The notes below the pieces were generated by a model that ran no database searches, was not told the origin of the DNA, and was given only the letters and a program-made list of their open reading frames with translations. A stretch of 64,000 nucleotides of DNA from a virus (Duplodnaviria > Caudoviricetes). Where the stretch lies: the IMG/VR virus record IMGVR_UViG_3300028175_000001. The stretch is one strand, 5' to 3'. Position 1 is the stretch's first letter. The number at the start of each line of letters is the position of its first letter. A program made the translations under genes and the position numbers. Shown one piece after another: positions 6,699 to 47,443 of the stretch.

Positions 6699-6700
6699 TA

Positions 6701-16669: not shown

Positions 16670-16688
16670 CTAAATATAAATATAAATA
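16670..16688 (+). promoter_or_regulatory. Overlapping T4 late promoter consensus (CTAAATA, TATAAATA x2)
   Basis: CTAAATATAAATATAAATA upstream of ORF 16741. Confidence 0.65.
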
Positions 16689-24061: not shown

Positions 24062-24806
24062 TTTTATTATACATTATAACATCATAAACTAATTGGGCAA
24101 ACTTCATGTTTTGTTCTGATGTCATGTGATTTAATAAAAAAATATCACTGTTGGACGCTTGACCAACTATATGCCCAATGGGAATTTTCACATAATCAAA
24201 ATTACTCGAATCCAAAGAATCAAATATTAACGAATTCAATAATTTGGTAGAGGTTATATTAAAATTTTTATAATAACTTATATAATGATCTAAACTAAAA
24301 CAAGTGAAAACTATAAATCTAATATTTTTAAAGTTGTTAGCTATTAATCGCAAAAAAGAAATATTTTTTACATTTTCATACAAAAACATTGGTCCTAAAG
24401 ATTGTGCAATAATTTTAATTTCATTACCAAGTTTTAAAATACTTTCGAAGTTCTGAGACGTGTTCCCCGCAACTTTTTTCATGAAATGAGCATCTCCCGC
24501 ATAATCATCTTCTGCTATTTGAAAAATACCATAAGCCGAATCATTTTTATTTTTCAAAAACGAAAAGTTTAGTCTTTTTTGATCTGACAAAGCCACAAAT
24601 ACTGTATCATGCGGTTTAATAAGTTCTTCTTCTAATTGAAAAACAAGTTTTGTTAAGGCATCATTGGGACCCGATCCGGCCTTCCCAAAACCCCGCACGT
24701 TTTCCTTTTTCAATACTGACAATCGATGAGGCCAACAACATTTGTCTGTAACATTTTCACAAATACAAGCAAAACTATCTCCAAAAATATGAATTGTCAT
24801 TTCCAC
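23973..24806 (-). CDS. SGNH/GDSL-hydrolase-like protein
   Basis: IFGDSF, W, GxGP and C-terminal NHMT motifs. Confidence 0.6.
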   Translation of the reverse strand: MEMTIHIFGDSFACICENVTDKCCWPHRLSVLKKENVRGFGKAGSGPNDALTKLVFQLEEELIKPHDTVFVALSDQKRLNFSFLKNKNDSAYGIFQIAEDDYAGDAHFMKKVAGNTSQNFESILKLGNEIKIIAQSLGPMFLYENVKNISFLRLIANNFKNIRFIVFTCFSLDHYISYYKNFNITSTKLLNSLIFDSLDSSNFDYVKIPIGHIVGQASNSDIFLLNHMTSEQNMKFAQLVYDVIMYNKIDKSWFVKDVPYDDPDESFKKMEPLFIYE

Positions 24807-25837
24807 TGATCTCCAAATGTATCAAACCCTGTACCGCATTTTTCTGCACACACTATTGATTTTCCCTGTGAACAAGAACTCATATTCCAAGACTGTTCTA
24901 TTTTTCTGAAAAAACTTCCTTCTATTATTTCATTTAATGGTTTATATAAAGCATTAATGTTTTTAATATCATCTAGATAATACCATATCTGGTTCTGTCC
25001 TAATTGTTCATATAATTTATATAATTTTCCAGCAGTCCAACAACAGGGGGTAACCAATCCCTCTGCTGAAATATAAATTTCTCTTGACTTTAAAGATTTA
25101 CATTCTATTCCAGTACTGTCTAAATAATTTTGAAAAGTGCCGTGATAGTTAAGCAGTTTATCATATTCGTTTACACTTTTATTTTGATGTTCTTTTTTGA
25201 TTGGAGGCTTAATTTCATTTCCTTTAATAGTTGTTTTTTTGAATATTTTATCATCTTTATAGCTTTGAACCCATCTACCAGTTTTTTTCTTTATAAAATC
25301 AAGACCGAATAATTTAGCCATACGTTCTGCTTCTTCCACTTGATGCTCATTGTGTTCAAATATCAAAAACACCCAAACACCTTTTCCGCCTGCTTGCGTA
25401 AACACATCCATTGAATTTTCAACTCGGGCCCAATCAACATTTACTCGATATAAATGATTCGTATCATCCAAACCATCTACCGAAAAAGACACTCTACCGT
25501 GATGTCCAAAAATTCCTGCAAGTCTTTTCCACCAATCATCTGATCGTCCTCCAGCATTTGTAGTCATATGAAGATATAAGTCTTTATTATTATATCGCAA
25601 CCATTCATATATGTCAAGGGAGTCTTTTGCCGCCAGGGGGTCTCCATGATTGCCACACATGAGAAAACTAGTCAATTGTTGTGCTAAACTAACATCGATA
25701 ATTTGTTTAAATTGATCAATAGAAATTTCAGCATTCTTTATGTGTGGATTATTGGTTCTATCACACATAGGACACATTGCTTGACATTTTTGTGTAGGCT
25801 CAAAATGTATATGTCTTATATCATTAAGTCTGTACAT
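24797..25837 (-). CDS. Radical SAM enzyme with C-terminal SPASM/Twitch domain (subtype A)
   Basis: CQAMCPMC; CGNHGDP; TNAG; C...GLVTPCC...C.EKC. Confidence 0.9.
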   Translation of the reverse strand: MYRLNDIRHIHFEPTQKCQAMCPMCDRTNNPHIKNAEISIDQFKQIIDVSLAQQLTSFLMCGNHGDPLAAKDSLDIYEWLRYNNKDLYLHMTTNAGGRSDDWWKRLAGIFGHHGRVSFSVDGLDDTNHLYRVNVDWARVENSMDVFTQAGGKGVWVFLIFEHNEHQVEEAERMAKLFGLDFIKKKTGRWVQSYKDDKIFKKTTIKGNEIKPPIKKEHQNKSVNEYDKLLNYHGTFQNYLDSTGIECKSLKSREIYISAEGLVTPCCWTAGKLYKLYEQLGQNQIWYYLDDIKNINALYKPLNEIIEGSFFRKIEQSWNMSSCSQGKSIVCAEKCGTGFDTFGDQWK

Positions 25838-26619
25838 AAATCTTTCGCTTTTTCTAAACAGCTATCAAATCTAGGAGAACTAAAGTGCCCCTGATTATTA
25901 ATCTCTTCATTGATATCTATATTTGTGGTATGTGCTATAGTATCAATATTCATTGCTCTAGATAAATGAGTCCACATTCCTTCTGTAGCAAAAATAAAAT
26001 CAGACATTTGTAATATTTCTACATTTCTAGAATAGTTAAAATCCTCTAAAGGAAAAAATGTTATTTCTGGAAACTTTCTAATCAAAAAGTCTATCTTCAT
26101 TCTTTGTTTTTTAGTTACTATATCTTGATTTTTATCATACACCAGATAACAAACTTTTTTTCTTTTTTCTCTAATATCAAAATCAATAGGCCAATACGAT
26201 CCATCAGTCCATATTTTATTGTACAGCATATTAAAAGTATTATTATAGTAATTACACCCTGTCGGAAGAGATATTTTTTTAAAATCTTTATCGTAAGTAT
26301 TCTCGTAGGTATTTTCAATCATTACATGAGCGTCTTGCCATGATATTTTTTTCTTTAAATGCACAGTTGTAATTTTATTTTTAGGTCTTTTAAACTGAAA
26401 AAAATCAATTATTTGATAAAAATCTTCACATAAAAGTTTCTTTGGCTTTGGATGAACGTCCAGTGATTCACACATATAAACGACACTATCACGTTCAAAA
26501 TAATCCATTACACTTAGAAATGCAGAAACATATACGAACCTATCTCCAAGCCCCCCGTCATTCGGGACAAAATAAAAAGTTAAAGGATCAGACAAAGAGG
26601 ATTTATGGAAAACATTCAT
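25816..26619 (-). CDS. GT-B / GT9-like hypothetical protein
   Basis: GGLGDR near the N-terminus; SDFIFATEGMWTHLSRAMNI resembles the GT9 DSGxxHLAxA motif. Confidence 0.45.
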   Translation of the reverse strand: MNVFHKSSLSDPLTFYFVPNDGGLGDRFVYVSAFLSVMDYFERDSVVYMCESLDVHPKPKKLLCEDFYQIIDFFQFKRPKNKITTVHLKKKISWQDAHVMIENTYENTYDKDFKKISLPTGCNYYNNTFNMLYNKIWTDGSYWPIDFDIREKRKKVCYLVYDKNQDIVTKKQRMKIDFLIRKFPEITFFPLEDFNYSRNVEILQMSDFIFATEGMWTHLSRAMNIDTIAHTTNIDINEEINNQGHFSSPRFDSCLEKAKDLCTDLMI

Positions 26620-26797
26620 ATTTTTTTACATACCATTTAATAACATTTTTATAAAATTGCTGGCTATCATGATCTGCTTTGAATTGTTTTATGAAGGCAC
26701 TTGTTGCATTATGATTTGATAATATTATTGAAGAAATGTTTTGCAATTCTCGTAAAGAATAATCTTGTATGATATTATCGATTATTTTTTCGTTCAT
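26603..26797 (-). CDS. Small hypothetical protein (64 aa)
   Basis: Fills the gap in a coupled operon and overlaps the next start. Confidence 0.55.
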   Translation of the reverse strand: MNEKIIDNIIQDYSLRELQNISSIILSNHNATSAFIKQFKADHDSQQFYKNVIKWYVKKYECFP

Positions 26798-26813
26798 AAT
26801 TTTCTAAAACAAT

Positions 26814-27887
26814 TTATGAGCATTTCCATAAAGGCAATGAGCAATTTAATTTCTTTTTTGGAATTTTGCTATCTGCAGAACTCACACACGCATCCGTAAT
26901 ACAAGGTTTTACATCATTAAATAATTTAAATCCTGTTTCAATATTTCCTAAAGGAACATCTCTGCAAGAATAAGATCGCTTAATGCTCCCATCAGGCTCA
27001 CGAATAATACAACTACGATAGCCAGAAGAACACATCCATTCTTTGAAATTATTAAAATTAAACGCATTGAACCTTTCAGATTGATCAAGATACCATTCAT
27101 TTCCCTCATCATCATTCATCACAATTTCAAATTCTTGACGAATATTTTTGAGTTTTTTTGATTTAACTTCCATATTTGTAATCTGAGGCATTCCATTATG
27201 TAGTATATGTATTTGTTCTTTTGTATATCCATCAACAACAAACGTTGCGGTAGGATCACTCTGGGGTTTAAGCGTTACGTTTATACCTCGTTCATAAAAA
27301 TAAAGCAGATTTTTATATGTTTCATCAAAAGTTTCTGGTATCATAACAGAATTAATTGTGACACGCACACCATTACGTTGACAAAATTCAAGTTTATCAG
27401 CAAAACCCTCAAACTTGTCCAGATCAAGATATTCACGATGAAATGATGCGGTAATAGATGCTCTTGTAAATTTTTTAGCGGATTCGACATATCGTTCAAA
27501 CCATTTCATAGGCCGAGAACAATTTGATGTCATATGTATAGAAGAATAATTAGTATTATGTACATCATCAGAAAGATGCTTAAGTATGTCTAAATATCCT
27601 GGATGAAAAGTGGGTTCACCCCCAGATAAGCTAAAATGAAAACTATTAAACCCTCTCTGTCTCGCCTGTAATTTAATTTCATCGATTGTTTCAAGACACA
27701 ACTTAGTGGGCCTATGATCTTTCGTATTGCTTCTAGCATATGGCCAACAATACGAACATCTATAATTACAAAATCGACCTAACAGCCAGGACACTGTAAA
27801 TAAGTCAGTATCCAACATTTTCCAGGTCCCAACTCGTTCAATTCTATCCCAAGGTATCTTGGTAAAATCATATTCACTTAATTTCAT
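26814..27887 (-). CDS. Radical SAM enzyme (subtype C)
   Basis: WLLGRFCNYRCSYC; SGGEPT; C-terminal WMCSSG...C...C...C. Confidence 0.9.
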   Translation of the reverse strand: MKLSEYDFTKIPWDRIERVGTWKMLDTDLFTVSWLLGRFCNYRCSYCWPYARSNTKDHRPTKLCLETIDEIKLQARQRGFNSFHFSLSGGEPTFHPGYLDILKHLSDDVHNTNYSSIHMTSNCSRPMKWFERYVESAKKFTRASITASFHREYLDLDKFEGFADKLEFCQRNGVRVTINSVMIPETFDETYKNLLYFYERGINVTLKPQSDPTATFVVDGYTKEQIHILHNGMPQITNMEVKSKKLKNIRQEFEIVMNDDEGNEWYLDQSERFNAFNFNNFKEWMCSSGYRSCIIREPDGSIKRSYSCRDVPLGNIETGFKLFNDVKPCITDACVSSADSKIPKKKLNCSLPLWKCS

Positions 27888-29236
27888 TTAACTCTTACTA
27901 ATTCATTATTTTCAATTTGATAATTGTCATAATAATCATTAAAATTCTGACCCCAAATTTCATCTGATTTTTTTCGATATATCAAAAATCTATTAAAATT
28001 ATTATAAGAAAGTTTTGTGTTTTTCACATAATGCACAATATAGTCGAGCCATATTTTTGCTTGTCTCTCATATAATATATTACCCGTCATGTCTTTTTTT
28101 TCTATAAGTTCATAAGTTTTTTTAATATCGTGTTCTGTTTCTTCTGCAAAATCATACATGATCAAAGACGGATTTATATACTTCGGAGTTTGCACAATAG
28201 ACGCATTAAATTGTATTTCAGAATTTGGTTTATCAGTGGGAGGATATAAATCAAGTATTGAATCAAAAATATCATACAGATCTAGCATTTGATATATTGA
28301 AGTGGTTATTGATGCGCTTAAATAAGTATGTTTATTTTCTTTTTTAAAATTATATATATTTTGTTTCAGTTTTTCCCAATCACCACCATTTCTAAAATAA
28401 GGATACATTTTTCTTCCAGCATCAATAGATATGATTATAGACGAAGATTTAAAAGGAGCTAAAAGTTCTGATAATTTTAAAACGTCTAAATTAGGAGAAT
28501 TAAAATTTGAATGAAAACTAATATTCATATTTTTAGCATTAGGATGTTCGGCTAATCCTTTAAGCGTAGGAAAAAACTGTTTTTGATATAACAATTCTCC
28601 TCCAGAAAAATCAATATACTCCAAATAGGGAAAATTTTCATTCAAATCATCAATGATTTTCAAAGCATCTTCTGTCGAAAGGCTCATTTCATTTTTATCA
28701 TTCGGACCATGTCGATGTTCTGTTCCCAATAATTGTCTTAAATCATATTGATGCACTTCTTTATCAGGTTTATAATTTAATAGTTTAGTAATCCACCCAG
28801 AAGAATAAACCTTAGAACAATGCAAACATGCAAAATTACATGCTGTGCTAAATCTTAATTCTAAATGCCTTAATCCCTTAAAATCAGTTTTATGATTATT
28901 TTTATCATAACATTTTAATAATGGAGTGTTACAACTTTCGCGGTTCAGCTCAGTTGTACCCCCGTGGCTTTTATGGAACCAACCATCTATCGGCAAATAA
29001 TCTTTTCTCATAGAAATTAAATTATCTCGTTCCATATCTTCACATGTATCACAGCCTGACGGCCACTTGTCTTGATATAGAAGTTCTCTGAGATTTCTAA
29101 AATTTTGATGATTAAATATTTCAGAAGGCAAAACAGTTTCATGTGTATAGACCAATTGATCTGATTGTCTAGGACATGTTGTAATCACGCCATTCTTATA
29201 ATTTATTCCACCCAAAGCATAATAGCATTTTAACAT
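27884..29236 (-). CDS. Radical SAM enzyme with N-terminal Twitch-like domain (subtype B)
   Basis: N-terminal C..A....TC...GCDTC; CNFACLHC; SGGE. Confidence 0.9.
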   Translation of the reverse strand: MLKCYYALGGINYKNGVITTCPRQSDQLVYTHETVLPSEIFNHQNFRNLRELLYQDKWPSGCDTCEDMERDNLISMRKDYLPIDGWFHKSHGGTTELNRESCNTPLLKCYDKNNHKTDFKGLRHLELRFSTACNFACLHCSKVYSSGWITKLLNYKPDKEVHQYDLRQLLGTEHRHGPNDKNEMSLSTEDALKIIDDLNENFPYLEYIDFSGGELLYQKQFFPTLKGLAEHPNAKNMNISFHSNFNSPNLDVLKLSELLAPFKSSSIIISIDAGRKMYPYFRNGGDWEKLKQNIYNFKKENKHTYLSASITTSIYQMLDLYDIFDSILDLYPPTDKPNSEIQFNASIVQTPKYINPSLIMYDFAEETEHDIKKTYELIEKKDMTGNILYERQAKIWLDYIVHYVKNTKLSYNNFNRFLIYRKKSDEIWGQNFNDYYDNYQIENNELVRVK

Positions 29237-30174
29237 TAAAATTCTTCATCTATAAATACATCTTGATTAGATTGCTTGCACGTAGTCCAACATTTTTCCA
29301 TCGGATTTTTGTTCCAAGAGTTTATTACATAATCATATAATTCTCCCGTCATTACTTCATCAGGAGTATTATATTTTAAATTAATTTCAAGAGGCCCTCC
29401 CAATTCTTGATACTTTTTCATAAATCTAGTTTCTATTTCGTTACCACCATAGACCTGTAAATATTCAGAATTAAAAAAACAACATGGCAATAATGCTCCA
29501 GTATGACTTAAAAAAATTCTTTTTTGATTTCCATATTTACACACTATTTTATGTTCCATCTTTCTAGTTTTAGTCTTTGATTCTTTATTATCATTTCTAT
29601 GGGAATATATCAATCTGAAATTTTCAAATCCTTCTTCTTTTGCTATTCGTTTTGCATCATCTATCAAATGCTCATTATGTTCAAATGCTATAAATTGCCA
29701 AGTCGCATGTCCTCCTGCTTTTATAAATTCTTTCCAATTTTCTTGGATTTTTTTATAATTAGAACCTATTCTATATTTTTCTAATGATTTTTGATCAACC
29801 CCGTCGATACCAAAAAATATAGATATTCTTCTTTCTCCTAAATTTTTCCAAAATTTCTTAGTTTTGGTTGAACCATTAGTTGATATGTTTATATTTACAT
29901 CATCTAAATAATCTAAAATTTCTAATAATTCAGGATGCAATGTTGGTTCATCTATTGATCCACAAAAATTTATCAACTTGCAATTAGGAAAAGTTTTCTT
30001 TGTAATCCATTTTTTAATTTGTTTGAGTGATATTACATCTTTATTTAAAACACTGTTTACTTTGTTTCTTTTAATTTGACGAAAACATCCAGGACAATCA
30101 ATATTACAATATGATGTCAATTCTATATCAATCCACTCAATCGTGTCTCTAGACCACATAAACTCTCTTTCCAA
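29236..30174 (-). CDS. Radical SAM / SPASM enzyme (subtype A)
   Basis: CNIDCPGC; FCGSIDEP; TNGS; WQFIAFEHN; LPCC. Confidence 0.9.
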   Translation of the reverse strand: MEREFMWSRDTIEWIDIELTSYCNIDCPGCFRQIKRNKVNSVLNKDVISLKQIKKWITKKTFPNCKLINFCGSIDEPTLHPELLEILDYLDDVNINISTNGSTKTKKFWKNLGERRISIFFGIDGVDQKSLEKYRIGSNYKKIQENWKEFIKAGGHATWQFIAFEHNEHLIDDAKRIAKEEGFENFRLIYSHRNDNKESKTKTRKMEHKIVCKYGNQKRIFLSHTGALLPCCFFNSEYLQVYGGNEIETRFMKKYQELGGPLEINLKYNTPDEVMTGELYDYVINSWNKNPMEKCWTTCKQSNQDVFIDEEF

Positions 30175-31397
30175 TTAGTATTTCTTGCTTTATCTAGATC
30201 ATTAAGATAATTTATCAATATATCGCCATTATCTGACCAACCATCTTTTTCAAACATATAATTTATATAAAAAGGCAAAACTTCTTTTGCTTTTTCGGTA
30301 AACATATATGAATCAATATTTTTTTTGATTTCATTTTTTAGTTCAATGGGCAAATTTTGTGCCGACAGGTGATACGGTTCTGTGACATGGTTTTCAAATA
30401 AAAATCTTATGTTTGGAAAATTTTCACGCAAAAAATCATATGTATCAATAAGATAAAACATACTCACATTACTACACGTCCATTGAAATGATACATCAAA
30501 ATTCGAAGGAAATTCTTTTAGATTATTACACCATTCATCCCACTTCAAACCATATCTAAAATACTCTCCAGCCCGTTCAACACAATCAACCGAAAGCCTA
30601 AGTCTCACTTTTTTAAAATTCTCCATATTTTCAAATTTTAAAGAACCATTACTCACATATGATATTTCCACATTCTTAGCATATGAACTTCCATTCAACC
30701 GCTTAATAAATTCATTATGTCGTTTATTCCAAAAACTTTCGCCGCCTAGAAAATTATATCTTTTTATTTGACTTATATCTAAATTATCCCAAAACGCACT
30801 ATCTTGCGATATCCAAGCATTAGTATCATACCCAGTTCTATGAATATAATTATATTTTTCTATTAGTGTTCTATCTTCGAGCCATCTCGAACTAACGGCA
30901 GGATTACAATGAATGCATTTAAAATTACAAATTGTACCTGTACGAACATCTATATGAAAAGGATGAACGTTTACATCACCATCATCCATTGTATGTGAGA
31001 TTAAATGTTCATATTTATCAAACCACATGTGATTTTCATCCATGCGTTTACTCACGCCGTTCAATTCTTCAACGTGCTTACATCTATTACAGTTTTCAGG
31101 CCATTCATTATTTAAAAATGATTTGCGTATTTCTTTAAAATATAAACCATTCCATTGATCTTCTATACTACTGTTATCTAATTTGTTAACCCATTTCAGA
31201 TATTCTTCGCCGAACTCCTTATTCAATGAATTAAAACTCCCCTCAGGAGGATTTTCAGATAGAGTGGGAATCCAATCAATATCTCGTTTACGAAACATTT
31301 GTTTCCATTGTTTTTCGATATCACTATAACCACACACTCTAGGTCTACCTGAAAGATTAGTTCCGAAATTAATCCAGGGTAAAATACAGGGCGTCAT
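30123..31397 (-). CDS. Radical SAM enzyme with N-terminal Twitch domain (subtype B)
   Basis: CILPW...CG...CNRC; CNFKCIHC; LGGE; SNGS. Confidence 0.9.
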   Translation of the reverse strand: MTPCILPWINFGTNLSGRPRVCGYSDIEKQWKQMFRKRDIDWIPTLSENPPEGSFNSLNKEFGEEYLKWVNKLDNSSIEDQWNGLYFKEIRKSFLNNEWPENCNRCKHVEELNGVSKRMDENHMWFDKYEHLISHTMDDGDVNVHPFHIDVRTGTICNFKCIHCNPAVSSRWLEDRTLIEKYNYIHRTGYDTNAWISQDSAFWDNLDISQIKRYNFLGGESFWNKRHNEFIKRLNGSSYAKNVEISYVSNGSLKFENMENFKKVRLRLSVDCVERAGEYFRYGLKWDEWCNNLKEFPSNFDVSFQWTCSNVSMFYLIDTYDFLRENFPNIRFLFENHVTEPYHLSAQNLPIELKNEIKKNIDSYMFTEKAKEVLPFYINYMFEKDGWSDNGDILINYLNDLDKARNTNWKESLCGLETRLSGLI

Positions 31398-32230
31398 AAT
31401 GACCTCAATAACGGTCTAATCCCTACAGGCTTATCATCATCCAATGCCAAATGAATTGTTTTTGTGGGTTTTAAATTAAAATCTTCACAAATTTTAAAAT
31501 AGTTTTTTTCATATTTTCTCCAGAAATATTCTGGACCAAATTCCTCCATAAAACGAATTCCTAGATACATTAAAGGATGTTGATTCATATTAAAATTATT
31601 CATCAGTGTAATAGATCCTTCGGGTTCTTCACGAGCAAATCTTACACCAATTCTATTACCCCCAATACCAGCTTTACTCAAACTGACCGCAAATGTTTTA
31701 ATCGCAGGATGATCGAAATTAAATTCAATATCACGAATACACCCAATCCAAGCAGAATCAACATGCACCGATATGTTTAATTCATGACATTTATCTAAAA
31801 TTTCATACATATTTGGATGCATATCACCATAATAAGGAAACGGCATAGCAATTAACAATTCTTTATTTGAATTTAATGTATCTATTGTAGCATATTTTAT
31901 ATTATTATTCAACCTCCAATGGTATTTGTAATCTTTTTCAAAAGTTTGTATGTCTCCACATCTTTGATATAAATCATCAATAAAATGAGTACATCCTTGT
32001 ATTACATGTTTCACAGGAAAAGCATTAATACCGCTAAACGTACTAAATTTATGATGTTTTAACCAATCAACAAGGGTATCTATAAAATAATCATCTAAAC
32101 TCCCTTGTTGTGTTGGGCTATCTCTAAAAACACCAGCATAAAATTCGTTTATACTTTCATCAAACATTGGTTGCTGACGTTCATATTGCAACCATTCTCT
32201 TTTATATTCTCTATTTGGATTATCTCTCAT
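31394..32230 (-). CDS. Fold-type-I PLP-dependent-like enzyme (aminotransferase/decarboxylase-like)
   Basis: VHVDSAW and SLSK (Schiff-base Lys) and RIG motifs; paralog of 54812. Confidence 0.6.
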   Translation of the reverse strand: MRDNPNREYKREWLQYERQQPMFDESINEFYAGVFRDSPTQQGSLDDYFIDTLVDWLKHHKFSTFSGINAFPVKHVIQGCTHFIDDLYQRCGDIQTFEKDYKYHWRLNNNIKYATIDTLNSNKELLIAMPFPYYGDMHPNMYEILDKCHELNISVHVDSAWIGCIRDIEFNFDHPAIKTFAVSLSKAGIGGNRIGVRFAREEPEGSITLMNNFNMNQHPLMYLGIRFMEEFGPEYFWRKYEKNYFKICEDFNLKPTKTIHLALDDDKPVGIRPLLRSL

Positions 32231-33262
32231 TTAAAAAAATAAATCTATATATTCTTCCATTTTTTCAGGAGGATTGTTAGTTAAAATTTTTTGTTTTATG
32301 ATTTTAAAATTCTTTTCAGAATACGAATTTGAAGATAAAAATTTACTCAATGATCCTTTAAGAAATTCATCAAACTCTCTATTGTGTTTTAAAATAAAAG
32401 ATTTAATATGATTAGGTAAATATGAAATATTTAACCAAGCAGGCTCATTTAAAAAATCCCATGACCAATTACGCATTTCTACTTTTGACCAATTGTATGT
32501 TTCTTGATAAAAAGGAGCATTCAAGGTATGCATAACAAAATGAGGTATTATAAAAACTTTAGGCCTTTTATCTAAATGCCAATTATACCACTTATTCCAA
32601 TTTTTTTCAAACTTGCTCCATTTGGTACCATATCTAACAAATTCTGCTATTTCTCCTATTCCATCAATGCTTATGTTGAGGTCTACGTGTTTAAAATCTA
32701 AAAGAAGATTTAAAAGTTCAGTATTGGGGAAAATAGAATTATTTGTAACCAACATCAAATTTATATTTTTTCTTGGGACATTTTTTAATAATTCAAAATT
32801 TCTTTTTTCTAAAAAGGGCTCGCCCCCAAGTAATTTTAAATGAATCAAATCATTAAAATTAGTAAACTCTGGTAAATTATTTTTTAAAATTGGACCAAAT
32901 TGATTCGAAAATCTAGGACCACAATCAATACATTTAAAATTACACTTATTGGATAATGAAACTTCTAACGTTTTAAATACTGGATTTTTGATATATTTTT
33001 TATCAAATTGAGCATTAAATTGATCTCTATATGATCTCCAAGATTTTCCTCCATGAGCTTCGTCTATATCACACTTTTCACACTCGGGCAGTTTTTCTCC
33101 ACTTAACATCCTTTTTCGTATTTTTTGATTTTCTTCACTGTCAAAGGCGTCTTTAATATCATTATATTTTTTGTCAAATGGCTTATCAAACATACAACAT
33201 GTTCTATATTGACCATCGGGATTATGAACCATATGCACGAATGGGGCCATGCAAAATGTCAT
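32231..33262 (-). CDS. Radical SAM enzyme with N-terminal Twitch domain (subtype B)
   Basis: FCMAPF...TCC...CEKC; CNFKCIDC; LGGEP. Confidence 0.9.
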   Translation of the reverse strand: MTFCMAPFVHMVHNPDGQYRTCCMFDKPFDKKYNDIKDAFDSEENQKIRKRMLSGEKLPECEKCDIDEAHGGKSWRSYRDQFNAQFDKKYIKNPVFKTLEVSLSNKCNFKCIDCGPRFSNQFGPILKNNLPEFTNFNDLIHLKLLGGEPFLEKRNFELLKNVPRKNINLMLVTNNSIFPNTELLNLLLDFKHVDLNISIDGIGEIAEFVRYGTKWSKFEKNWNKWYNWHLDKRPKVFIIPHFVMHTLNAPFYQETYNWSKVEMRNWSWDFLNEPAWLNISYLPNHIKSFILKHNREFDEFLKGSLSKFLSSNSYSEKNFKIIKQKILTNNPPEKMEEYIDLFF

Positions 33263-36788: not shown

Positions 36789-36802
36789 GTTATAATTAAA
36801 TA

Positions 36803-37420
36803 TTAAATATAGTTAACCGATATATTTTTATTAAAAGAAGGAATCATATCATGAGTAATATGATGTTGACGGCGATTTAATGTTTCATCTTTAATTCCGA
36901 CACCCATAAGCACTATTGGCTCATCATCGGTTTTTAGAATACTTTTGATTTTTTCACCATCAAAACAAGCACAACAGCCCGTTTGATACCCCAATAAAGA
37001 TGCAGTCAAATTAACCATACCAGCGGCAACACCTATAGACTGATGCAAATCTTTATCTAATGTGGCTTGATTTGCTTCTGTATCTTTCCCATGCATTTTA
37101 TTATAAGTTTCTTGATTGGCATCGGTTCTTAAGTCATTTTTTGTAAATGCTAAAAGCAAATTTGCTAATACTTGAGGATTAGTTCTTCCCGAACCCTCGC
37201 CATAATCATTTTCAAAAAAAGTAACATCATGTATATCTTCAATTATTTCTCTATTTTGAATCACATGAACATTATAAAAACATATGTTTTGTTTAGAAGG
37301 ACATTCCGTTGCGGCAATTACTATTGTTTTTAAATCAGCCTCTGGAATAGTTTTCTCAAGATTCCAATTTCTTTGACATCTTTGCGATTTTTTAATCGAA
37401 ACTTCTATTTGGTTATTCAT
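36803..37420 (-). CDS. Nitroreductase-fold flavoprotein
   Basis: SQRCQRNW...CPSKQN...NPQV.A.LL...IGVAAG.V...A..LGY.TGCC.C. Confidence 0.8.
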   Translation of the reverse strand: MNNQIEVSIKKSQRCQRNWNLEKTIPEADLKTIVIAATECPSKQNICFYNVHVIQNREIIEDIHDVTFFENDYGEGSGRTNPQVLANLLLAFTKNDLRTDANQETYNKMHGKDTEANQATLDKDLHQSIGVAAGMVNLTASLLGYQTGCCACFDGEKIKSILKTDDEPIVLMGVGIKDETLNRRQHHITHDMIPSFNKNISVNYI

Positions 37421-39958: not shown

Positions 39959-40701
39959 AAAAAATTTGATTTGAATTGTGATGGGTTTGGAACTATTTTA
40001 TTAATAAAAAAATTCATTATTTGATCGGCTAATATTACATGATTTTCAAAAGATAAATGATTATTTCTTGTATCGTTTTCAAAAAAAATTACATCATTAT
40101 TTTCGACTTTTCTTTTTTCACAATAAGAAATTAAATTTAAGCACCTAGAAACTATATGCACATTATTCGGAACTTCTAATGTATAATTATAATTTCGAAA
40201 AGGATAACCATTACCCGACGACGGCCATATTAGAATTTTTTTATATTTTTTATGTTTTGTAAAAATAAAACTTACAAACAACACCTCTAAAATTCTATGC
40301 AATCCCGTTGAATAAAAAGACTCATAATCTTTAAAAATTTTATTTGATTGATCTGCTATTTCATCATCTATCATTTCAGGTAAATCAAAACTTTTTTTAT
40401 TCATCACACTATAAATCATACTAGCATCTGACATCTTTTCTTCAGATAAATATTCTAACCATAATCGATTCATATCAGGTAAACAGATCAACAAAAAATC
40501 GCTGAATTTTGTAAATCCCATAAATTTTTCTAAACACCATTGGGCACCAACACCATGTAACGAGGTGTTCTTTACTTCAAAATTATATTTTTTTTCTAAA
40601 AGTTCCATCCACGAATCTGAAACATCAACTTTTGATTTCGGGCACGAAAAACTATCACCTAAAATATCAATTGAATTCCCAATTGTCTTCATCGATTTCA
40701 T
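39955..40701 (-). CDS. SGNH/GDSL-hydrolase-like protein
   Basis: ILGDSF...W...G.G; NNHLSFENH. Confidence 0.6.
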   Translation of the reverse strand: MKSMKTIGNSIDILGDSFSCPKSKVDVSDSWMELLEKKYNFEVKNTSLHGVGAQWCLEKFMGFTKFSDFLLICLPDMNRLWLEYLSEEKMSDASMIYSVMNKKSFDLPEMIDDEIADQSNKIFKDYESFYSTGLHRILEVLFVSFIFTKHKKYKKILIWPSSGNGYPFRNYNYTLEVPNNVHIVSRCLNLISYCEKRKVENNDVIFFENDTRNNHLSFENHVILADQIMNFFINKIVPNPSQFKSNFL

Positions 40702-41611
40702 TTCTTTTACATTTGATATTACAAATTTCCATTAATTTTAAATTTTTCCAAAGTTTTGAAAAAACTTCACTCTTAATAATTTCATCAAAATCACTATATT
40801 TTAAATTATTTTCTAATAAATGATTAATCGTGTTTCCAAAAAAATTATAAAATTTTTGAATATAATAGGATGAACCCATCCAACAACAAGGCCAAACTGT
40901 TCCATTTACATCAATAAAAAATGATTTTTCCAATTCTTCATTGAAGTAAGTTGCTTTACATTTTATAAAATCATGTGATATATTTTTTTTCTTTACTTCC
41001 ACGACTTCATGATTCTCTCTTTCAGAATATTTTTCATTAAAAGCATAAAACTTTTCAATTTTTGATATTTTTTTTGCTTGAGATAATTGATGCTTATTAT
41101 GTTCAAATATTATAAATTGCCAAATAGCTTTGCCCCCATGACGTATGAATGTTTTATAATTATCTTCTAATTTTGACCAATTTACATTTTTTCTATAAAT
41201 ATGATTCGTATCTGATAACCCATCAATACCAAATACAACAACTGTATTATATTTCGCTAAGGTTTTCCAAAATTTTTTTGTTTTTGTACCACCATTTGTC
41301 GCAATCCAAATTTCTACATTTGGATATTTAAAATTAACATATTCACATATTAACAACAAATCAGGATTTAAAGTCGGTTCATCAATGTTTCCACAAAAAT
41401 GTATTTTTTGTAAATTCTTAAAGTCATGGTTAATCCATTTTTTAAAATCGGTTAAACTTATAAATTTATCATTCAATCGTCTAGAGTAGGGGTTTGTTAA
41501 GTCAACAGAATATTCATGTCTTTCACAAGAAGGGCATTTTGCATTGCAAAAAGAAGTAAGTTCTATTTGCAATCTAGTTATATCATTTAATGAAATTGGC
41601 CACTTAGACAT
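40667..41611 (-). CDS. Radical SAM / SPASM enzyme (subtype A)
   Basis: CNAKCPSC; FCGNIDEP; TNGG; WQFIIFEHN; VWPCC. Confidence 0.9.
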   Translation of the reverse strand: MSKWPISLNDITRLQIELTSFCNAKCPSCERHEYSVDLTNPYSRRLNDKFISLTDFKKWINHDFKNLQKIHFCGNIDEPTLNPDLLLICEYVNFKYPNVEIWIATNGGTKTKKFWKTLAKYNTVVVFGIDGLSDTNHIYRKNVNWSKLEDNYKTFIRHGGKAIWQFIIFEHNKHQLSQAKKISKIEKFYAFNEKYSERENHEVVEVKKKNISHDFIKCKATYFNEELEKSFFIDVNGTVWPCCWMGSSYYIQKFYNFFGNTINHLLENNLKYSDFDEIIKSEVFSKLWKNLKLMEICNIKCKRNEIDEDNWEFN

Positions 41612-42674
41612 ATTCTTTTAATTTTCTATAAACAAACAATGCTTCTTCAGGTGCTTTTTGAAATGTTTCAAGATACTGTGTGTAAATTATAAATTGTCTG
41701 CAATAGTCAACATTATAATCACTAGTGTTTAATATATTTTGAATAAAGTCATCAGTTGGCAATTCTTTTTTAATTTCATCAGGTAAATATTCTGGACTTA
41801 AATACTTAGGAGAAAAACAATTTGTTTTCCTCATTTTAATATCCAATGATGTTAAATATTTTTCTGTATCATCAACATTAAATATATTATAATTAGTCAT
41901 AACAAAATTTGAACACACTCCACTTGTTAAATCCCCATAAGTATATTGTTTATGGTCTTTCAATAAATGCTTCCACCTCAAAGCATTTTTTTCCCAAATA
42001 TCCATTTTCAAACCCAATCTAACCCACTCGCCAACAGGACCAATTCCATCAATACTCACCATGATCATAACTCTTTTCAATTTCTTAATAAAATTCGACC
42101 ATGAATTATGTACAAATTTTGTACAATTTGTATTCATCGAAAAAAACAATACATCATAATTTACATGTTGATCCAACATTTTAAAAAATTCAGGCGAAAA
42201 TTCTCTTTGAATTGTAGGTTCACCGCCTGTAAAAGACAAGTGTTTTAATTTACTAAAATCTACATTATCATAATTAGGTTTTATTTTATCGATCTTACCT
42301 TCACGATTTTCCCAAACAGTGCTTGATTCTGGTTTACATGTAACACAAGCAAAATTGCACTTATTACTAAAAGAAAGTTCCAAACCCTCAAGAAAAAAAT
42401 CTTCACGATATGAATGTTCTTGATTGATAACTTGTCTTTGCGAAAGTTCTCCTACCGAATCATAATAATAGCAAGATCCACATTCTTCAATATAATCTCT
42501 ATTCAACATGCGTTCACGTAGAAGATTCATTTCTTCTCCCATAAAAGCATCTATGACATTTGTATATCGTTTTCTAATAGGGGAATGATAGCAACATGTC
42601 CGATAAGTTCCATCAGGACCACCGGTCATTCTGCTAAATGGCGCCATGCAAAATGTGGTCATAAGAATCGACAT
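41604..42674 (-). CDS. Radical SAM enzyme with N-terminal Twitch domain (subtype B)
   Basis: FCMAPFSRMT...TCC...CGSC; CNFACVTC; TGGEP. Confidence 0.9.
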   Translation of the reverse strand: MSILMTTFCMAPFSRMTGGPDGTYRTCCYHSPIRKRYTNVIDAFMGEEMNLLRERMLNRDYIEECGSCYYYDSVGELSQRQVINQEHSYREDFFLEGLELSFSNKCNFACVTCKPESSTVWENREGKIDKIKPNYDNVDFSKLKHLSFTGGEPTIQREFSPEFFKMLDQHVNYDVLFFSMNTNCTKFVHNSWSNFIKKLKRVMIMVSIDGIGPVGEWVRLGLKMDIWEKNALRWKHLLKDHKQYTYGDLTSGVCSNFVMTNYNIFNVDDTEKYLTSLDIKMRKTNCFSPKYLSPEYLPDEIKKELPTDDFIQNILNTSDYNVDYCRQFIIYTQYLETFQKAPEEALFVYRKLKEYV

Positions 42675-43849: not shown

Positions 43850-44474
43850 TGCTCATCACCAATTTAACTTTCCAATCAACGGGAAATGGTTCGTTATAAA
43901 ACTCAGTAACGAAATTATTGGCCCAACACGCTAAATCGGGACTCCAATGATCCATTACATCAACTGAGTTAGTTGCCCAAGTATTAAAGAAATCGTGTTT
44001 AATATAAGTTTCCATTGTACGGCCATTCCAAAAATTATCATTAGTTATTTGACCACCAGTCATTATGTCAACAAACTCTCCAGTATCATATATCGGATGA
44101 AGAAAAGACGAAACATCCGTTCCAAAAACATTATGAACATGTATATGAGGAAAATTCCACTTACCACACATAAATTTTTTATGTTCTTCTTGTATCCATT
44201 GCAATAACCATCTATAGGCTTCATCCTCCGTATTGAAACACAACACATGATTCACATAAATCCCATCTGACCATATCAAAAATACAGGTAATGGCCAAAT
44301 ACCCTCGCCCTCTTTAAATTTATTTTGTGTATTTACAATTTCTCTACAGCAAGGATTTCTTGTACAGCCATCACGATATTTGTCAATAACAATATGCCTC
44401 TCGGCAGAATATAATTCTTTTGAATTAGACCAAACACGTTTTTCAACATTTAATCTTAAATTATATGCATACAT
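43833..44474 (-). CDS. Hypothetical protein (N-terminal WSN motif family)
   Basis: Coupled ORF; LRL...RVWSN. Confidence 0.65.
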   Translation of the reverse strand: MYAYNLRLNVEKRVWSNSKELYSAERHIVIDKYRDGCTRNPCCREIVNTQNKFKEGEGIWPLPVFLIWSDGIYVNHVLCFNTEDEAYRWLLQWIQEEHKKFMCGKWNFPHIHVHNVFGTDVSSFLHPIYDTGEFVDIMTGGQITNDNFWNGRTMETYIKHDFFNTWATNSVDVMDHWSPDLACWANNFVTEFYNEPFPVDWKVKLVMSNEISI

Positions 44475-45598: not shown

Positions 45599-46341
45599 TA
45601 TTCTAAGGACGTGTCATTTTCCATTATGAAAGTATTTTCGATTGCCCAATCAGAAACATTATTAACATCACTCAAATAGTCATATACATAAGAACTTATC
45701 AAAGACCAATTCTTTTTATTATCAACATTAAAACAATGATGTATTTCACTCTCACCGAACGATTCTTTATCTTGACAATTACAAACCATCTTTCTTGGAT
45801 TAGAAATATTATCATAACTACTATCCAATTCAGCTAGATCGGCATATGTTATGTCATTTTTACTAGGAGCATCTTCCCCAAAAAGAGAAGTGTTATAGAA
45901 GTCATCTAATGGCGGGGAATAAAAATTAACTGGTCCATATTCTGCCCAAAACACTGAATATAGTCTTTTTAAAAGAATATCAGCATTAAAAACTTCCCTA
46001 CTTCTCATTGAAACATCAGTAGACCAAGATAAATTATATTGATGAAACATTGTAAAATACAATTCTTTCGTTTGATCATTCATATTTAACAAATCAAACG
46101 AAACGCCCTCATAAAACATTAAACAATTTATTTTAGTATTATCAGCAAAACAAAATAACCCAAGAGTCCCATTAAGATTAAATCCCTCTTCGTCAAGTTG
46201 CGTTGTTAAAAAGGGGGGGTATACATCATAATCAACTGACGGCTGATTATTAGATTCAAGCAACGTTAAATATTCATCCGCATTATTCCATGTCCGAGAA
46301 TCATCAGGTAAGTGAGTCAATTCAAATAAAATGCATTTCAT
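45598..46341 (-). CDS. Acidic hypothetical protein (N-terminal WNN motif family)
   Basis: Coupled ORF; FEL...RTWNN. Confidence 0.65.
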   Translation of the reverse strand: MKCILFELTHLPDDSRTWNNADEYLTLLESNNQPSVDYDVYPPFLTTQLDEEGFNLNGTLGLFCFADNTKINCLMFYEGVSFDLLNMNDQTKELYFTMFHQYNLSWSTDVSMRSREVFNADILLKRLYSVFWAEYGPVNFYSPPLDDFYNTSLFGEDAPSKNDITYADLAELDSSYDNISNPRKMVCNCQDKESFGESEIHHCFNVDNKKNWSLISSYVYDYLSDVNNVSDWAIENTFIMENDTSLE

Positions 46342-46342
46342 A

Positions 46343-47443
46343 TTATCCTTTCTGTGTTAAAAAGCTTGAACATTCTTTTGGAACTTTTACAAATGTATTT
46401 AGGTATTTAGTATATTGTAAAAATTTCGCATGAATTAATTCAGATTCATCATTTTTTTCTAAAACATCCAAAACGAATTTTTTATGATTTTGATCATAAA
46501 ATTCTGATTCGATTATTTCTTTCTTATATTTATTAGGCAAATATGCAGGACACAAATAGTCTGGTTCAAACGCAGTTGTTAACATCACACGATCTCTCAT
46601 ATTAAATGCATTTACATATCTAAGAGTATCGGTTAAATTAAAAACATTATAGTTGCTTAATACAAAATTTATCCAAGGACCATCATGTCTTGAAGTTTTA
46701 TCATAAGTTCTGTTTGAAAAAAACTCTAACCATTTTAAAAAATTTTTACGCCATACTCTTTCTTTCCATCCCAACCGACAAAATTCTCCAACCTCACCAA
46801 CACCATCCAACGAAATACCTATGCAAACATGTTTTAATCCTGATAAAAATTCCATCCATCGTTCATTTGGATACGATGAACAATTGGTAATCATTTGAAA
46901 CCACGTATCATTATTGGTTTTACTCTCTATCAAATCCCAAAATTCATCTGTATAATACGGTTCTAAAGTTGGCTCGCCCCCCATTATCGTTAGTTGTATT
47001 AAATTATCAACACCATCCAACTCTATTGGTAATTTGTGTAAAATTTGACTATCAATAAATCTAAATTCTTTATTTCTAGACTCCCAACCCGAAGATGCAG
47101 ATTCGTTACATGTTACGCATATAAAATTACATTTATTTGAAGCCGCAAAATCAAGCTCCCTCAACAAAGTAGATGGTGGGGGATCTGGATATCTTTCATT
47201 TATATCTTGTCGGCAAGAATATTGATTTGAATCATCATAAAAATAACACCATTCACACTCTGTTCTTCGTTTTCCTTCTAACATTTCTTGACGAATAACT
47301 TCCATTTCGTCACTTAAAAATGCATTTTGTATAGTTTTATAATTATTTTTTAATGGAGGATGATAAACACATGTTCTTAAATCACCATTTGGTGATCTTG
47401 TCATTCTTGTAAACGGTGATGCACAAAAATATTTGGTATTCAT
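46343..47443 (-). CDS. Radical SAM enzyme with N-terminal Twitch domain (subtype B)
   Basis: FCASPFTRMT...TC...CEWC; CNFICVTC; MGGEP. Confidence 0.9.
   Translation of the reverse strand: MNTKYFCASPFTRMTRSPNGDLRTCVYHPPLKNNYKTIQNAFLSDEMEVIRQEMLEGKRRTECEWCYFYDDSNQYSCRQDINERYPDPPPSTLLRELDFAASNKCNFICVTCNESASSGWESRNKEFRFIDSQILHKLPIELDGVDNLIQLTIMGGEPTLEPYYTDEFWDLIESKTNNDTWFQMITNCSSYPNERWMEFLSGLKHVCIGISLDGVGEVGEFCRLGWKERVWRKNFLKWLEFFSNRTYDKTSRHDGPWINFVLSNYNVFNLTDTLRYVNAFNMRDRVMLTTAFEPDYLCPAYLPNKYKKEIIESEFYDQNHKKFVLDVLEKNDESELIHAKFLQYTKYLNTFVKVPKECSSFLTQKG

Follow-up and report, generated by a model that had tools for sequence, protein, structure and literature searches.

The analysed window is a 64,000-nt stretch (IMGVR_UViG_3300028175_000001) from an uncultured, abundant marine T4-like phage. 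It contains an accessory region of roughly 53 kb (10581-63833), hereafter the island, which adjoins gp59 and gp32 and lies upstream of them. The island genes are on one strand, except for one coding for a 321-aa Ser/Thr-rich protein on the other strand, and only three intergenic gaps were found. All 15 radical SAM paralogs proposed by the first-pass annotation were found as intact ORFs at the positions it gave, on the minus strand, with one CX3CX2C motif in each. Pfam PF04055 matched all 15, six of them under the gathering cut-off. A profile built from the 15 cores and run on the 64-kb window recovered exactly these genes and one B12-binding-type gene, and no further radical SAM genes. All 15 retain the predicted CX3CX2C site for the SAM-cleaving [4Fe-4S] cluster. 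A large radical SAM set is a lineage trait of the related phages, whose contigs showed 13-15 radical SAM matches each. The 16th gene, outside the 15-gene set, matched a KedN5-type C-methyltransferase model with 206.7 bits, below the cut-off of 700:

56450..58258, minus strand: B12-binding-type radical SAM, 602 aa; PF04055 50.8 bits, B12-binding 24.2 bits

Three subtypes had been proposed among the 15 paralogs, and the core-domain tree bore this out: A formed one side of a branch (support 92), B and bacterial NF033640 proteins were on one side of another (support 82), and a single C clade was compatible with the data (AU p 0.80). Subtype B, earlier described as an N-terminal Twitch domain followed by the core, can be assigned by profile to the NCBIfam N-terminal-twitch radical SAM family NF033640 (cut-off 170 bits), with one full-length copy just under the cut-off:

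27884..29236, minus strand: B1, N-terminal-twitch radical SAM, 450 aa; NF033640 208.6 bits
30123..31397, minus strand: B2, N-terminal-twitch radical SAM, 424 aa; 263.8 bits
32231..33262, minus strand: B3, N-terminal-twitch radical SAM, 343 aa; 211.6 bits
35355..36788, minus strand: B4, N-terminal-twitch radical SAM, best family match, 477 aa; 389.5 bits
37413..38126, minus strand: Bx, B-type core without twitch domain, 237 aa; 67.6 bits
38909..39958, minus strand: B5, N-terminal-twitch radical SAM, 349 aa; 160.6 bits, just below cut-off
41604..42674, minus strand: B6, N-terminal-twitch radical SAM, 356 aa; 184.2 bits
44456..45598, minus strand: B7, N-terminal-twitch radical SAM, 380 aa; 173.8 bits
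46343..47443, minus strand: B8, N-terminal-twitch radical SAM, 366 aa; 177.3 bits

Seven of the eight full-length copies passed the cut-off (173.8-389.5 bits), and the eighth, B5, retains all four twitch Cys. The domain preceding the core has four invariant Cys (Cx17C...CxxC). In B4, for which about 3000 metagenomic homologues were found, the invariant residues are Cys 17, 35, 99, and 102, Cys 155, 159, and 162, and GGE 233-235, while in B8 the CX3CX2C motif is at residue 105 and the twitch Cys are at 7, 25, 63, and 66. In B3, a Pfam SPASM match was observed at residues 4-65, ahead of the core. Bx, previously taken for a core-only B, matched NF033640 over profile positions 97-357 only and was placed with B in the core-domain tree; no orthologue was detected in the 13 related loci. 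Our literature search found no characterised member of NF033640.

Subtype A is a virus-dominated sister family of B, and the two shared one joint branch in the core-domain tree (support 92). The four A copies show 25-38% pairwise identity, with 38% between A2 and A4:

24797..25837, minus strand: A1, radical SAM with C-terminal twitch-like domain, 346 aa; PF04055 36.9 bits
29236..30174, minus strand: A2, radical SAM with C-terminal twitch-like domain, 312 aa; PF04055 42.5 bits
33259..34224, minus strand: A3, radical SAM with C-terminal twitch-like domain, 321 aa; PF04055 23.6 bits, SPASM 21.9 bits
40667..41611, minus strand: A4, radical SAM with C-terminal twitch-like domain, 314 aa; PF04055 45.2 bits, SPASM 28.6 bits

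A C-terminal SPASM domain had been attributed to this subtype. A C-terminal Cys domain is present, but it is better described as twitch-like by its sequence, because it contains 5 invariant Cys and the 7-Cys SPASM pattern is missing; Pfam SPASM matched A marginally, in A3 and A4 only. In hhalign comparisons, the A C-terminal domain matched the B N-terminal domain (93.9% probability, E 1.6e-7) and the A core matched the B core (99.2%, E 1e-19). As judged from these alignments, a homologous twitch domain follows the core in A and precedes it in B, a permuted order. The extra domain of A and B may bind a single auxiliary [4Fe-4S] cluster, like its counterparts in BtrN, SkfB, and MoaA.

Subtype C is a deeper and looser group than A and B:

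26814..27887, minus strand: C1, radical SAM with C-terminal Cys module, 357 aa; PF04055 56.9 bits
34202..35362, minus strand: C2, radical SAM with C-terminal Cys module, 386 aa; PF04055 36.9 bits

C1 and C2 have the motif and the C-terminal Cys module in common, with an identity of only 27% (42 bits). Their best NCBIfam matches were all far under the cut-offs: viperin (44.5 bits) and MoaA (41.4 bits) for C1, and prokaryotic viperin (35.7 bits) and N_Twi (34.3 bits) for C2. The nearest Atlas clusters of C1 were 89-100% viral.

The paralogy of these copies is ancient, because the copies have their own orthologue groups in related phages. In the trees, a group with short tips and a long stem was found for each window copy, apart from Bx. 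Separate groups were recovered for A1 (99, starred), A3 (100, starred), and B1 (95-100, starred). Orthologues of C2 and A2 were present in 9 and 7 of the 13 relatives, respectively, and those of B8 in the related loci L006, L008, and L014. The A and B trees are incongruent: although A2 is the sister of A4 (support 81), the respective partners, B2 and B6, are widely separated in the B tree, where B6 is nested with B7, B8, and B3 (95-96, starred) and forms one clade with B7 and B8 (96-100, starred). It would fit these data that each copy is specialised on a different step or substrate.

The radical SAM genes are accompanied by several other genes:

10581..16650, minus strand: two giant glycosyltransferase proteins at the island end; GT2+GT1/4+GT9, 1139 aa, and GT1/4+FkbM methyltransferase, 887 aa
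23973..24806, minus strand: SGNH-like protein after A1, 277 aa; GDSF motif
25816..26619, minus strand: 267-aa protein between C1 and A1; no Pfam or NCBIfam match
26603..26797, minus strand: 64-aa ORF next to C1, in one of the three island gaps
31394..32230, minus strand: possible PLP fold-I enzyme, B2 cassette partner, 278 aa; weak matches
36803..37420, minus strand: nitroreductase-family protein NTR1, 205 aa; PF00881 38.5 bits
38119..38919, minus strand: PP-loop/QueC-like protein, candidate amidotransferase partner, 266 aa; Pfam QueC 26.4 bits
39955..40701, minus strand: SGNH-like protein after A4, 248 aa; GDSF motif and alignment

An SGNH gene had been reported to follow A twice. The positions hold, and the SGNH identity comes from the GDSF motif and weak profile matches only: a PDB GDSL protein at E 0.047, and bacterial GDSL neighbours by hhalign at 84% probability over 65 residues, with no Pfam match. 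The copy after A1 is 28% identical to one at 63057-63833. The QueC match of the PP-loop protein covers its C-terminal part only, and the protein also weakly resembles the PP-loop domain of asparagine synthetase (E 0.025). The possible PLP enzyme weakly matched a transaminase in NCBIfam (25.3 bits) and, in the PDB, a decarboxylase (E 0.029), has a paralogue at 54812-55687, and adjoins B2 in 2/2 relatives; B5 likewise adjoins the PP-loop gene in 2/2. NTR1 is 42% identical to its paralogue at 51569-52252 and is absent from the equivalent position in relatives. The 64-aa ORF has orthologues beside C1 in L002 and L016 and near C1 in L009, and distant copies of the 267-aa protein (31-40% identity) occupy the same place in relatives.

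The island also codes for sugar-related proteins, including a UDP-glucose/GDP-mannose dehydrogenase family member, an O-carbamoyltransferase, and the GT2, GT1/4, and GT9 glycosyltransferases, together with the FkbM methyltransferase, the B12-type radical SAM protein, and 2OG oxygenases. Radical SAM enzymes are O2-sensitive, and the presence of O2-dependent oxygenases in a phage from oxic surface water is an observation that runs counter to the proposed radical chemistry. About 15 island genes fall in no recognisable family, which also counts against a sugar-related role. Among bacteria, NF033640 was present in 4 of 301 Bacteroidota genomes, always as 2-4 clustered copies. The neighbours there are GT2, GT-C, and GT11-like transferases, polysaccharide deacetylase, GDSL proteins, methyltransferases, carbamoyltransferase, and B12-type radical SAM genes, and another locus contains Wzm/Wzt-type ABC exporter genes, a DegT aminotransferase, and a PglD-like acetyltransferase. 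These loci also contain oxygenases of the PhyH and WelO5 types, which usually tailor natural products and do not favour a glycan product.

Taken together, the 15 genes most likely form a battery of single-step radical tailoring enzymes in an island that builds and edits an unusual sugar or glycan, to which we assign a probability of about 0.6. We favour this reading because the surrounding phage genes and the neighbours of the Bacteroidota homologues handle sugars; it is the gene neighbourhood alone that gives the substrate class, since the function of the A, B, and C families is a predicted one. The nearest solved structures of the confident AF2 models (pLDDT 94 for A4 and 90 for B4) were SPASM/twitch enzymes, among them BlsE and BtrN, which act on sugars. 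Each enzyme would abstract an H atom from a position of a sugar, nucleotide-sugar, or glycan, resulting in oxidation, epimerisation, dehydration, decarboxylation, or C-C bond formation. The change might then be fixed by a partner enzyme, for example from keto to amine, as with BtrN and an aminotransferase in butirosin biosynthesis, and glycosyltransferases may build up the product at the surface of the host (its envelope) or on the virion.

It is unlikely that the array instead tailors a diffusible small molecule, such as an aminoglycoside- or cyclitol-like pseudo-sugar, a secondary metabolite whose sugar-like carbons would still be the targets. The families mirror those of aminoglycoside pathways (a twitch enzyme of BtrN-like fold, a B12-type radical SAM, and a TobZ-type carbamoyltransferase), and the PhyH-type oxygenases of the bacterial loci point the same way. 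The island also holds tryptophan-halogenase-like, AMP-binding, and two nitroreductase genes, which would be no less at home in a small-molecule or peptide pathway than in a glycan pathway. However, at least four glycosyltransferase domains are found in the two giant proteins and a Wzm/Wzt-type exporter in one bacterial locus, and no cyclitol synthase or scaffold-forming enzyme was recognised in the island.

We consider it quite unlikely that the enzymes modify a peptide or protein, as RiPP-like maturases or side-chain editors of a phage structural protein. Peptide maturation is the best-known role of SPASM/twitch enzymes, and the Ser/Thr-rich 321-aa protein could be a target. Among the closest folds, peptide-modifying enzymes (SkfB, CteB, SuiB, and anSME) are as many as sugar-modifying ones, an observation counter to a sugar substrate. 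Against this, Pfam found a PqqD/RRE-like domain in 0/15 of the enzymes, and the bacterial homologues are located in sugar-handling loci. With its three gaps and no short Cys-, Ser-, or Thr-rich ORF, the island offered no precursor-peptide candidate, and the 64-aa ORF has no core of this kind.

The first-pass annotation had read B-C-A or B-A as a functional unit, segmentally duplicated or forming heteromeric enzymes, which we consider improbable, with our results speaking mainly against the duplication. The gene order in the window was as described, with B-C-A occurring twice, except that the second run is broken between C1 and A1 by the 64-aa and 267-aa ORFs, the latter hardly one of the "two small genes" reported. 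At least two BCA runs arose in shuffles of the 15 labels with P = 0.026, and every A preceded by B or BC with P = 0.17, the pattern having been picked after viewing the data. Gene overlaps, such as the 8 nt between A4 and B6 immediately upstream, suggest translational coupling, but every gene of the island overlaps or touches its neighbour, and coupling therefore does not single out these pairs. Some B-A linkage is real, as B6-A4 and B2-A2 are each adjacent in 2/2 relatives. However, B4-C2-A3 was contiguous in 0/7 related loci holding all three genes, and B1-C1-A1 in 0/4. In relatives, the PP-loop gene or extra B genes separate B4 from C2, and A3 often directly abuts A2, three such relatives being without B2. 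Thus, of the proposed ancient segmental duplication, the ancient paralogy stands; duplication of a B-C-A unit does not, given this non-contiguity and the incongruent A and B trees. The apparent repeat reflects how a long collinear backbone (B4..C2..A3..A2..B1..C1..A1) is laid out in this genome, and the units gained or lost between related phages are small cassettes of one radical SAM gene and a neighbour, such as the PP-loop enzyme, the PLP-like enzyme, or the SGNH-like protein.

Hypermodification of phage DNA bases by radical SAM enzymes acting on nucleotides or DNA is extremely unlikely: T4-like phages modify their DNA, the island adjoins gp59 and gp32 and has the QueC-like and carbamoyltransferase genes, and the best, weak matches of C1 and C2 are the nucleotide-acting viperin and MoaA, but no DpdA/TGT, hydroxymethylase, or DNA kinase family was found among the island proteins, the glycosyltransferase families are of the polysaccharide type, and the bacterial loci are without DNA-modification genes.

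Returning to sugar or glycan tailoring, one of the closest known parallels is BtrN, the butirosin 2-deoxy-scyllo-inosamine dehydrogenase and founding twitch enzyme, with a sugar-like substrate and a subsequent aminotransferase step. Like the phage enzymes, it has a small radical SAM core and one auxiliary four-Cys domain, its spacing (Cx18C...CxxC) is close to the Cx17C...CxxC of phage B, and the A4 model aligned with 4m7t at TM 0.59 (normalised by target). However, identity is about 14-16%, there is no family-level sequence match, and the domain is N-terminal in phage B. BlsE, the radical SAM enzyme for blasticidin S, with cytosylglucuronic acid as its substrate, gave the A4 model its best match in the PDB (7vob, E 4.5e-10, TM about 0.5), where SuiB, SkfB, anSME, and BtrN were also among the best, and reached Z 11.0 for the B4 core; the island UDP-sugar dehydrogenase could supply a uronic acid. 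With only 12-14% identity, this match is a lead only, because it is not clearly ahead of the peptide-modifying enzymes. The SPASM/twitch peptide maturases SkfB, CteB, SuiB, and anSME are among the nearest solved folds of both models and have the auxiliary-cluster logic in common with them, but differ in their RRE domain, precursor peptide, and 7-Cys SPASM motif, all missing from the phage system, and in its sugar-handling neighbourhood. Compared with NF033640, the phage B copies match end to end (up to 389.5 bits), have the four-Cys domain before the core, and are clustered in several copies like the Bacteroidota members; in the phage, however, the family has grown to 8-9 copies, interspersed with members of two other families, and Bx has lost the twitch domain. 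In marine T4-like phages, a 183-kb environmental genome with 12 radical SAM genes and otherwise similar, glycosyltransferase-rich hypervariable islands of pelagimyophages with differing radical SAM "cassettes" have been reported (Nishimura 2017, PMC5332604; Zaragoza-Solas 2020, PMC7029224). In both papers, the radical SAM genes are counted or mentioned in passing, without family assignment, domain analysis, or function. The pelagimyophage islands lie between VrlC and gp14, whereas the island described here is upstream of gp59/gp32.

The first-pass annotation had listed 15 open reading frames (ORFs) as radical SAM genes of three subtypes, A, B and C. All of them were recovered at their positions, each with a single CX3CX2C motif, which in this superfamily serves the SAM-binding [4Fe-4S] cluster of a partial TIM-barrel core. 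PF04055 was matched by 15/15, six of the matches lying under the gathering score. From this motif and the core match, the 15 products are predicted members of the radical SAM superfamily (PF04055). A profile built from the 15 cores and searched in the window recovered the same 15 ORFs and one extra gene:

56450-58258, minus strand, B12-binding radical SAM gene

The B copies correspond to NF033640 (NCBIfam N_Twi_rSAM), whose curated cut-off is 170 bits over the whole protein. Seven B copies passed this cut-off, with scores of 173.8-389.5 bits, and the A and C copies scored 34-51 bits in the core region only.

Scores of the B copies against NF033640
Position 27884, B1, 208.6 bits
Position 30123, B2, 263.8 bits
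Position 32231, B3, 211.6 bits
Position 35355, B4, 389.5 bits
Position 41604, B6, 184.2 bits
Position 44456, B7, 173.8 bits
Position 46343, B8, 177.3 bits
Position 38909, B5, 160.6 bits, under the cut-off
Position 37413, Bx, 67.6 bits, under the cut-off, a core without the N-terminal domain

In an alignment of 34 phage and bacterial B members, C17, C35, C99 and C102 (B4 numbering) were invariant, as were C155, C159, C162 and the GGE motif. The Pfam SPASM match precedes the core, at residues 4-65 in B3 and 17-102 in B4. All B copies except Bx carry a four-Cys twitch-like domain N-terminal to the core, as in NF033640. Searches of the literature on NF033640, "N-terminal twitch" and the family name brought up no paper on this family, and one combining twitch with nucleotide sugar and polysaccharide returned only papers on twitching motility.

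The four A copies (A1 at 24797, A2 at 29236, A3 at 33259 and A4 at 40667) share 25-38% identity with one another and have no curated family. An alignment of 39 A sequences showed invariant core Cys, CGN where B has GGE, and five invariant C-terminal Cys (C218, C242, C243, C297, and C301). A C-terminal SPASM domain had been proposed for these copies. This assignment was not borne out, since SPASM (PF13186) is defined by seven Cys and two auxiliary clusters (CX9-15GX4C ... CX2CX5CX3C ... C), against five invariant Cys here. The Pfam SPASM scan (cut-off 21.5) was marginal in A3 (21.9) and A4 (28.6) and gave no match in A1 or A2.

Subtype C is the loosest. C1 (26814) and C2 (34202) are 27% identical (42 bits) and have in common WxLGRxCxYxCxYC, GGEPT, and a C-terminal W-C...C...C-x4-C module. 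Viperin and MoaA were rejected as identities for both: C1 scored 44.5 against viperin_w_prok (cut-off 180) and 41.4 against MoaA (cut-off 284), and C2 scored 35.7 and 31.2, respectively. A sequence search of the PDB with C1 gave no match. The ESM Atlas clusters that contain the A and C families are almost exclusively viral. In related phage loci (L008:18066-18980 and the ORFs starting at L010:17667 and L012:18084), a fourth form of radical SAM protein, about 303 aa long, was observed to group with C1 (support 82). Its core is preceded by a Cys-rich extension of about 100 residues, and the C-terminal Cys module is missing. It may be a second case of an auxiliary domain shifted to the N-terminus.

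The division into three subtypes was upheld by a core-domain tree rooted on the B12 enzyme. In this tree, a branch with support 92 set A apart, B and bacterial NF033640 proteins stood on their own branch (support 82), and a single C clade was not rejected (AU p 0.80). A and B were joined in one branch (support 92). In profile-profile comparison with hhalign, the A C-terminal domain aligned with the B N-terminal domain with 93.9% probability (E 1.6e-7, 62 columns), the aligned columns comprising a G-x-V-x-PCC hairpin, a helix, and the last Cys. The A and B cores aligned with 99.2% probability (E 1e-19), and the A C-terminal domain did not align with the B core (0.3%). Therefore, A and B are sister families with the same auxiliary domain at opposite ends. 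The Cys pattern of these domains is compatible with a twitch domain, a truncated SPASM whose conserved Cys on a beta-hairpin and helix hold a single auxiliary [4Fe-4S] cluster, and cluster binding is predicted. The pair would be a natural case of one auxiliary-cluster domain serving a radical SAM core from its N-terminal or its C-terminal side, which makes it useful for understanding what such domains do.

Confident structure models of B4 and A4 were obtained, with pLDDT values of 90 and 94. Their closest solved structures were SPASM/twitch enzymes (SkfB, CteB, anSME, SuiB, BlsE, MoaA, and BtrN). Both models superposed on radical SAM cores with modest Z values of 10-12, and A4 matched solved structures with E values down to 4.5e-10 and a similarly modest TM of about 0.5-0.6. 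In AlphaFold DB, B4 aligned end to end with uncharacterised proteins (TM at least 0.7), including one with the name "twitch domain-containing radical SAM protein". As modelled, the B4 and A4 folds do not separate peptide from sugar substrates. A complex prediction for B6 with A4 (score 0.01, mark 0.32) was neutral on binding. Residues 24-310 of AlphaFold DB entry A0A5E4K0B9 (592 aa, "Glycosyl transferase family 8") match the A4 fold; this protein would be an A-like radical SAM enzyme fused to a glycosyltransferase, if the remainder is the transferase.

The genes had also been described as a recurring B-C-A module, and gene order was compared in related loci. Their sources were IMG/VR and phage contigs that had been wrongly binned with metagenome-assembled genomes (MAGs). 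A scan of the genome collection returned mostly such contigs, labelled as Chloroflexota and Acidimicrobiaceae MAGs, and owing to this mis-binning the MAG-labelled loci were not used as cellular evidence. Three of them (PAAV01000010.1, PAAV01000055.1, and PBYV01000081.1), filed under one MAG of each group, hold the island (the accessory region 10581-63833) at 55-87% protein identity with a G+C content of 28-31%, and one is 161 kb long; they resemble phage contigs placed in bacterial MAGs by mis-binning. In the trees, every window copy fell in a separate orthologue group, with short tips and long stems. The paralogues are therefore older than the lineage of this phage. At least five more B groups, missing from the window, are present in the pan-genome. 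Relatives retain the order B4..C2..A3..A2..B1..C1..A1 as a collinear backbone, in which the insertions vary. The proposed module was not supported by the comparison, as neither of its two instances was contiguous in any related locus with all three genes.

Contiguity in 13 non-redundant related loci (denominator, loci with all named genes)
B4-C2-A3, 0/7
B1-C1-A1, 0/4
B4-C2, 1/9
C2-A3, 2/7
A2-B1, 4/6
B2-A2, 2/2
B6-A4, 2/2

Shuffling the 15 subtype labels gave P = 0.026 for at least two BCA runs and P = 0.17 for a looser pattern, the pattern having been chosen post hoc. Co-duplication of B-A pairs was rejected because the A and B trees are incongruent: A2 and A4 are sisters, yet B2 and B6, with which they pair, are widely separated. 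The units conserved across the 13 loci are small cassettes:

B5 and a PP-loop gene
A PLP-like gene, B2, and A2
B6, A4, and an SGNH-like gene
C1 and a 64-aa ORF
B8, B7, and three genes of no recognised family

Bx and the adjacent nitroreductase gene occur in the window only and are absent from the 13 loci. These results fit a remark in the literature (PMC7029224) that radical SAM cassettes distinguish related pelagimyophage islands. A neat repeated gene pattern of one genome may thus dissolve on comparison with relatives. In two metatranscriptome runs from different studies, contigs join 30769 to 33150 with 24 other nucleotides between (depths 41 and 185). The junction would correspond to a variant without B3, the PLP-like gene, and part of B2, and it agrees with relatives having A3 directly against A2; it hints at cassette-level polymorphism in natural populations.

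The phage genotype with this array is common. In the assembly collection, 245 blocks index the exact B4 protein, and about 3000 relatives of B4 occur in metagenomes. Near-identical copies of an 8-kb piece of the array were found in at least 14 DNA runs of marine origin, which belong to at least 10 studies. When the cultured phage collection was searched for near-identical DNA, no match to the island appeared, and tblastn of B4 against cultured phages gave three distant matches only (23-24% identity). Metatranscriptome contigs from four RNA libraries span almost the entire array with an identity of at least 99%. This coverage was not counted as proof of transcription, since the contigs are assemblies and DNA may have been carried over.

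The window stems from an uncultured T4-like myovirus of the sea and has a G+C content of about 30%, with baseplate genes at 1-8800 and gp32 and gp59 at 8854-10367. From 63833 to 10581, all sizeable genes except two lie on the minus strand, with three intergenic gaps. Scans for the T4 late-promoter motif and for sigma-70 promoters and terminators found no enrichment, the late motif occurring 13 times in the whole window against 17.8 expected. Within the minus-strand island, a plus-strand gene (16741-17706) codes for a Ser/Thr/Gly/Pro-rich protein of 321 aa and adjoins the giant glycosyltransferase genes. Two overlapping copies of the late-promoter motif, TATAAATA, lie upstream of it at 16675-16688. 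Its product could be a late structural protein, hence a possible glycosylation target.

The radical SAM genes share the island with the following genes:

In the island, UDP-glucose/GDP-mannose dehydrogenase family protein
In the island, O-carbamoyltransferase
In the island, two 2OG oxygenases
In the island, halogenase-like flavoprotein
In the island, AMP-binding enzyme
36803-37420 and 51569-52252, two nitroreductases, 42% identical to each other
In the island, PP-loop protein with weak likeness to asparagine synthetase
31394-32230 and 54812-55687, paralogous pair with weak PLP-like likeness
In 10581-16650, minus strand, giant GT2+GT1/4+GT9 protein of 1139 aa, with a weak TibC N-terminal-domain match
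In 10581-16650, minus strand, giant GT1/4+FkbM methyltransferase protein of 887 aa, closing the island with the other giant
50448-51557, 59222-60454, and 60463-61665, three copies of a virus-only family of about 400 aa, with several more in the related locus L013

Paralogue sets thus extend to island genes outside the radical SAM family, namely the 400-aa family, the PLP-like pair, and the nitroreductases. In the Atlas, the 400-aa family gave unnamed virus-only clusters and a GT10 match below threshold. The genes after A4 and A1 were searched for the SGNH/GDSL blocks I (GDS), II (G), III (GxND), and V (DxxH), and they show block I (GDSF), the Gly of block II, and "NH" near the C-terminus. They had no Pfam match; their profile hit a GDSL protein in the PDB weakly (E 0.047) and aligned with bacterial GDSL neighbours with 84% probability over 65 residues.

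In Bacteroidota, NF033640 was found in 4 of 301 genomes, clustered in 2-4 copies where present. These loci contain GT2, GT-C, and GT11-like transferases, polysaccharide deacetylase, GDSL proteins, methyltransferases, carbamoyltransferase, B12-type radical SAM genes, and PhyH and WelO5 oxygenases. One locus has Wzm/Wzt-type ABC exporter genes, a DegT aminotransferase, and a PglD-like acetyltransferase. In another observation, an 842-aa secreted protein (L030:13076-15604) adjoins an NF033640 pair; although encoded by a bacterium, it is built like a fibre or tailspike, having a Peptidase_S74 endosialidase-chaperone domain and a sorting tail for type IX secretion.

Glycosyltransferases, carbamoyltransferase, methyltransferase, SGNH/GDSL proteins, and B12-type radical SAM enzymes are common to the phage island and the bacterial loci. 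Mainly because these partner families recur in phage and bacteria, we favour sugar or glycan tailoring as the role of the array, with a probability of about 0.6. A rival explanation is that the product is a diffusible metabolite resembling a sugar. Another is modification of a peptide or protein, and SPASM/twitch folds as modelled are neutral on it. The 15 enzymes do not show the marks of RiPP maturases, as no RRE/PqqD-like Pfam domain was reported in the 15 proteins and no precursor peptide was seen in the island, which has three gaps; its only small ORF, of 64 aa, lacks a core that is repetitive or rich in Cys, Ser or Thr. A distant or unrecognised precursor may exist. DNA modification is the last rival.

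If the array does edit sugars, abundant ocean viruses would hold a large and portable radical carbohydrate chemistry, and host surfaces or virions could change, hence who infects whom. A more speculative and rather doubtful extension of glycan tailoring is that this is the longest radical SAM tailoring pathway yet in a virus, with about 15 twitch-type enzymes of families A and B (domain-permuted sisters) and C each carrying out its own kind of C-H functionalisation on a single glycan scaffold. Swapping of cassettes between strains would then vary the product, a radical route to surface-glycan diversity shaping phage-host recognition in the ocean.

Marine T4-like phages with many radical SAM genes have been mentioned without analysis in two papers (PMC5332604, PMC7029224). 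New here are the largest radical SAM set so far seen in a T4-like genome, its three-family composition, the direct profile evidence of a permuted domain, and the negative test of the B-C-A module.
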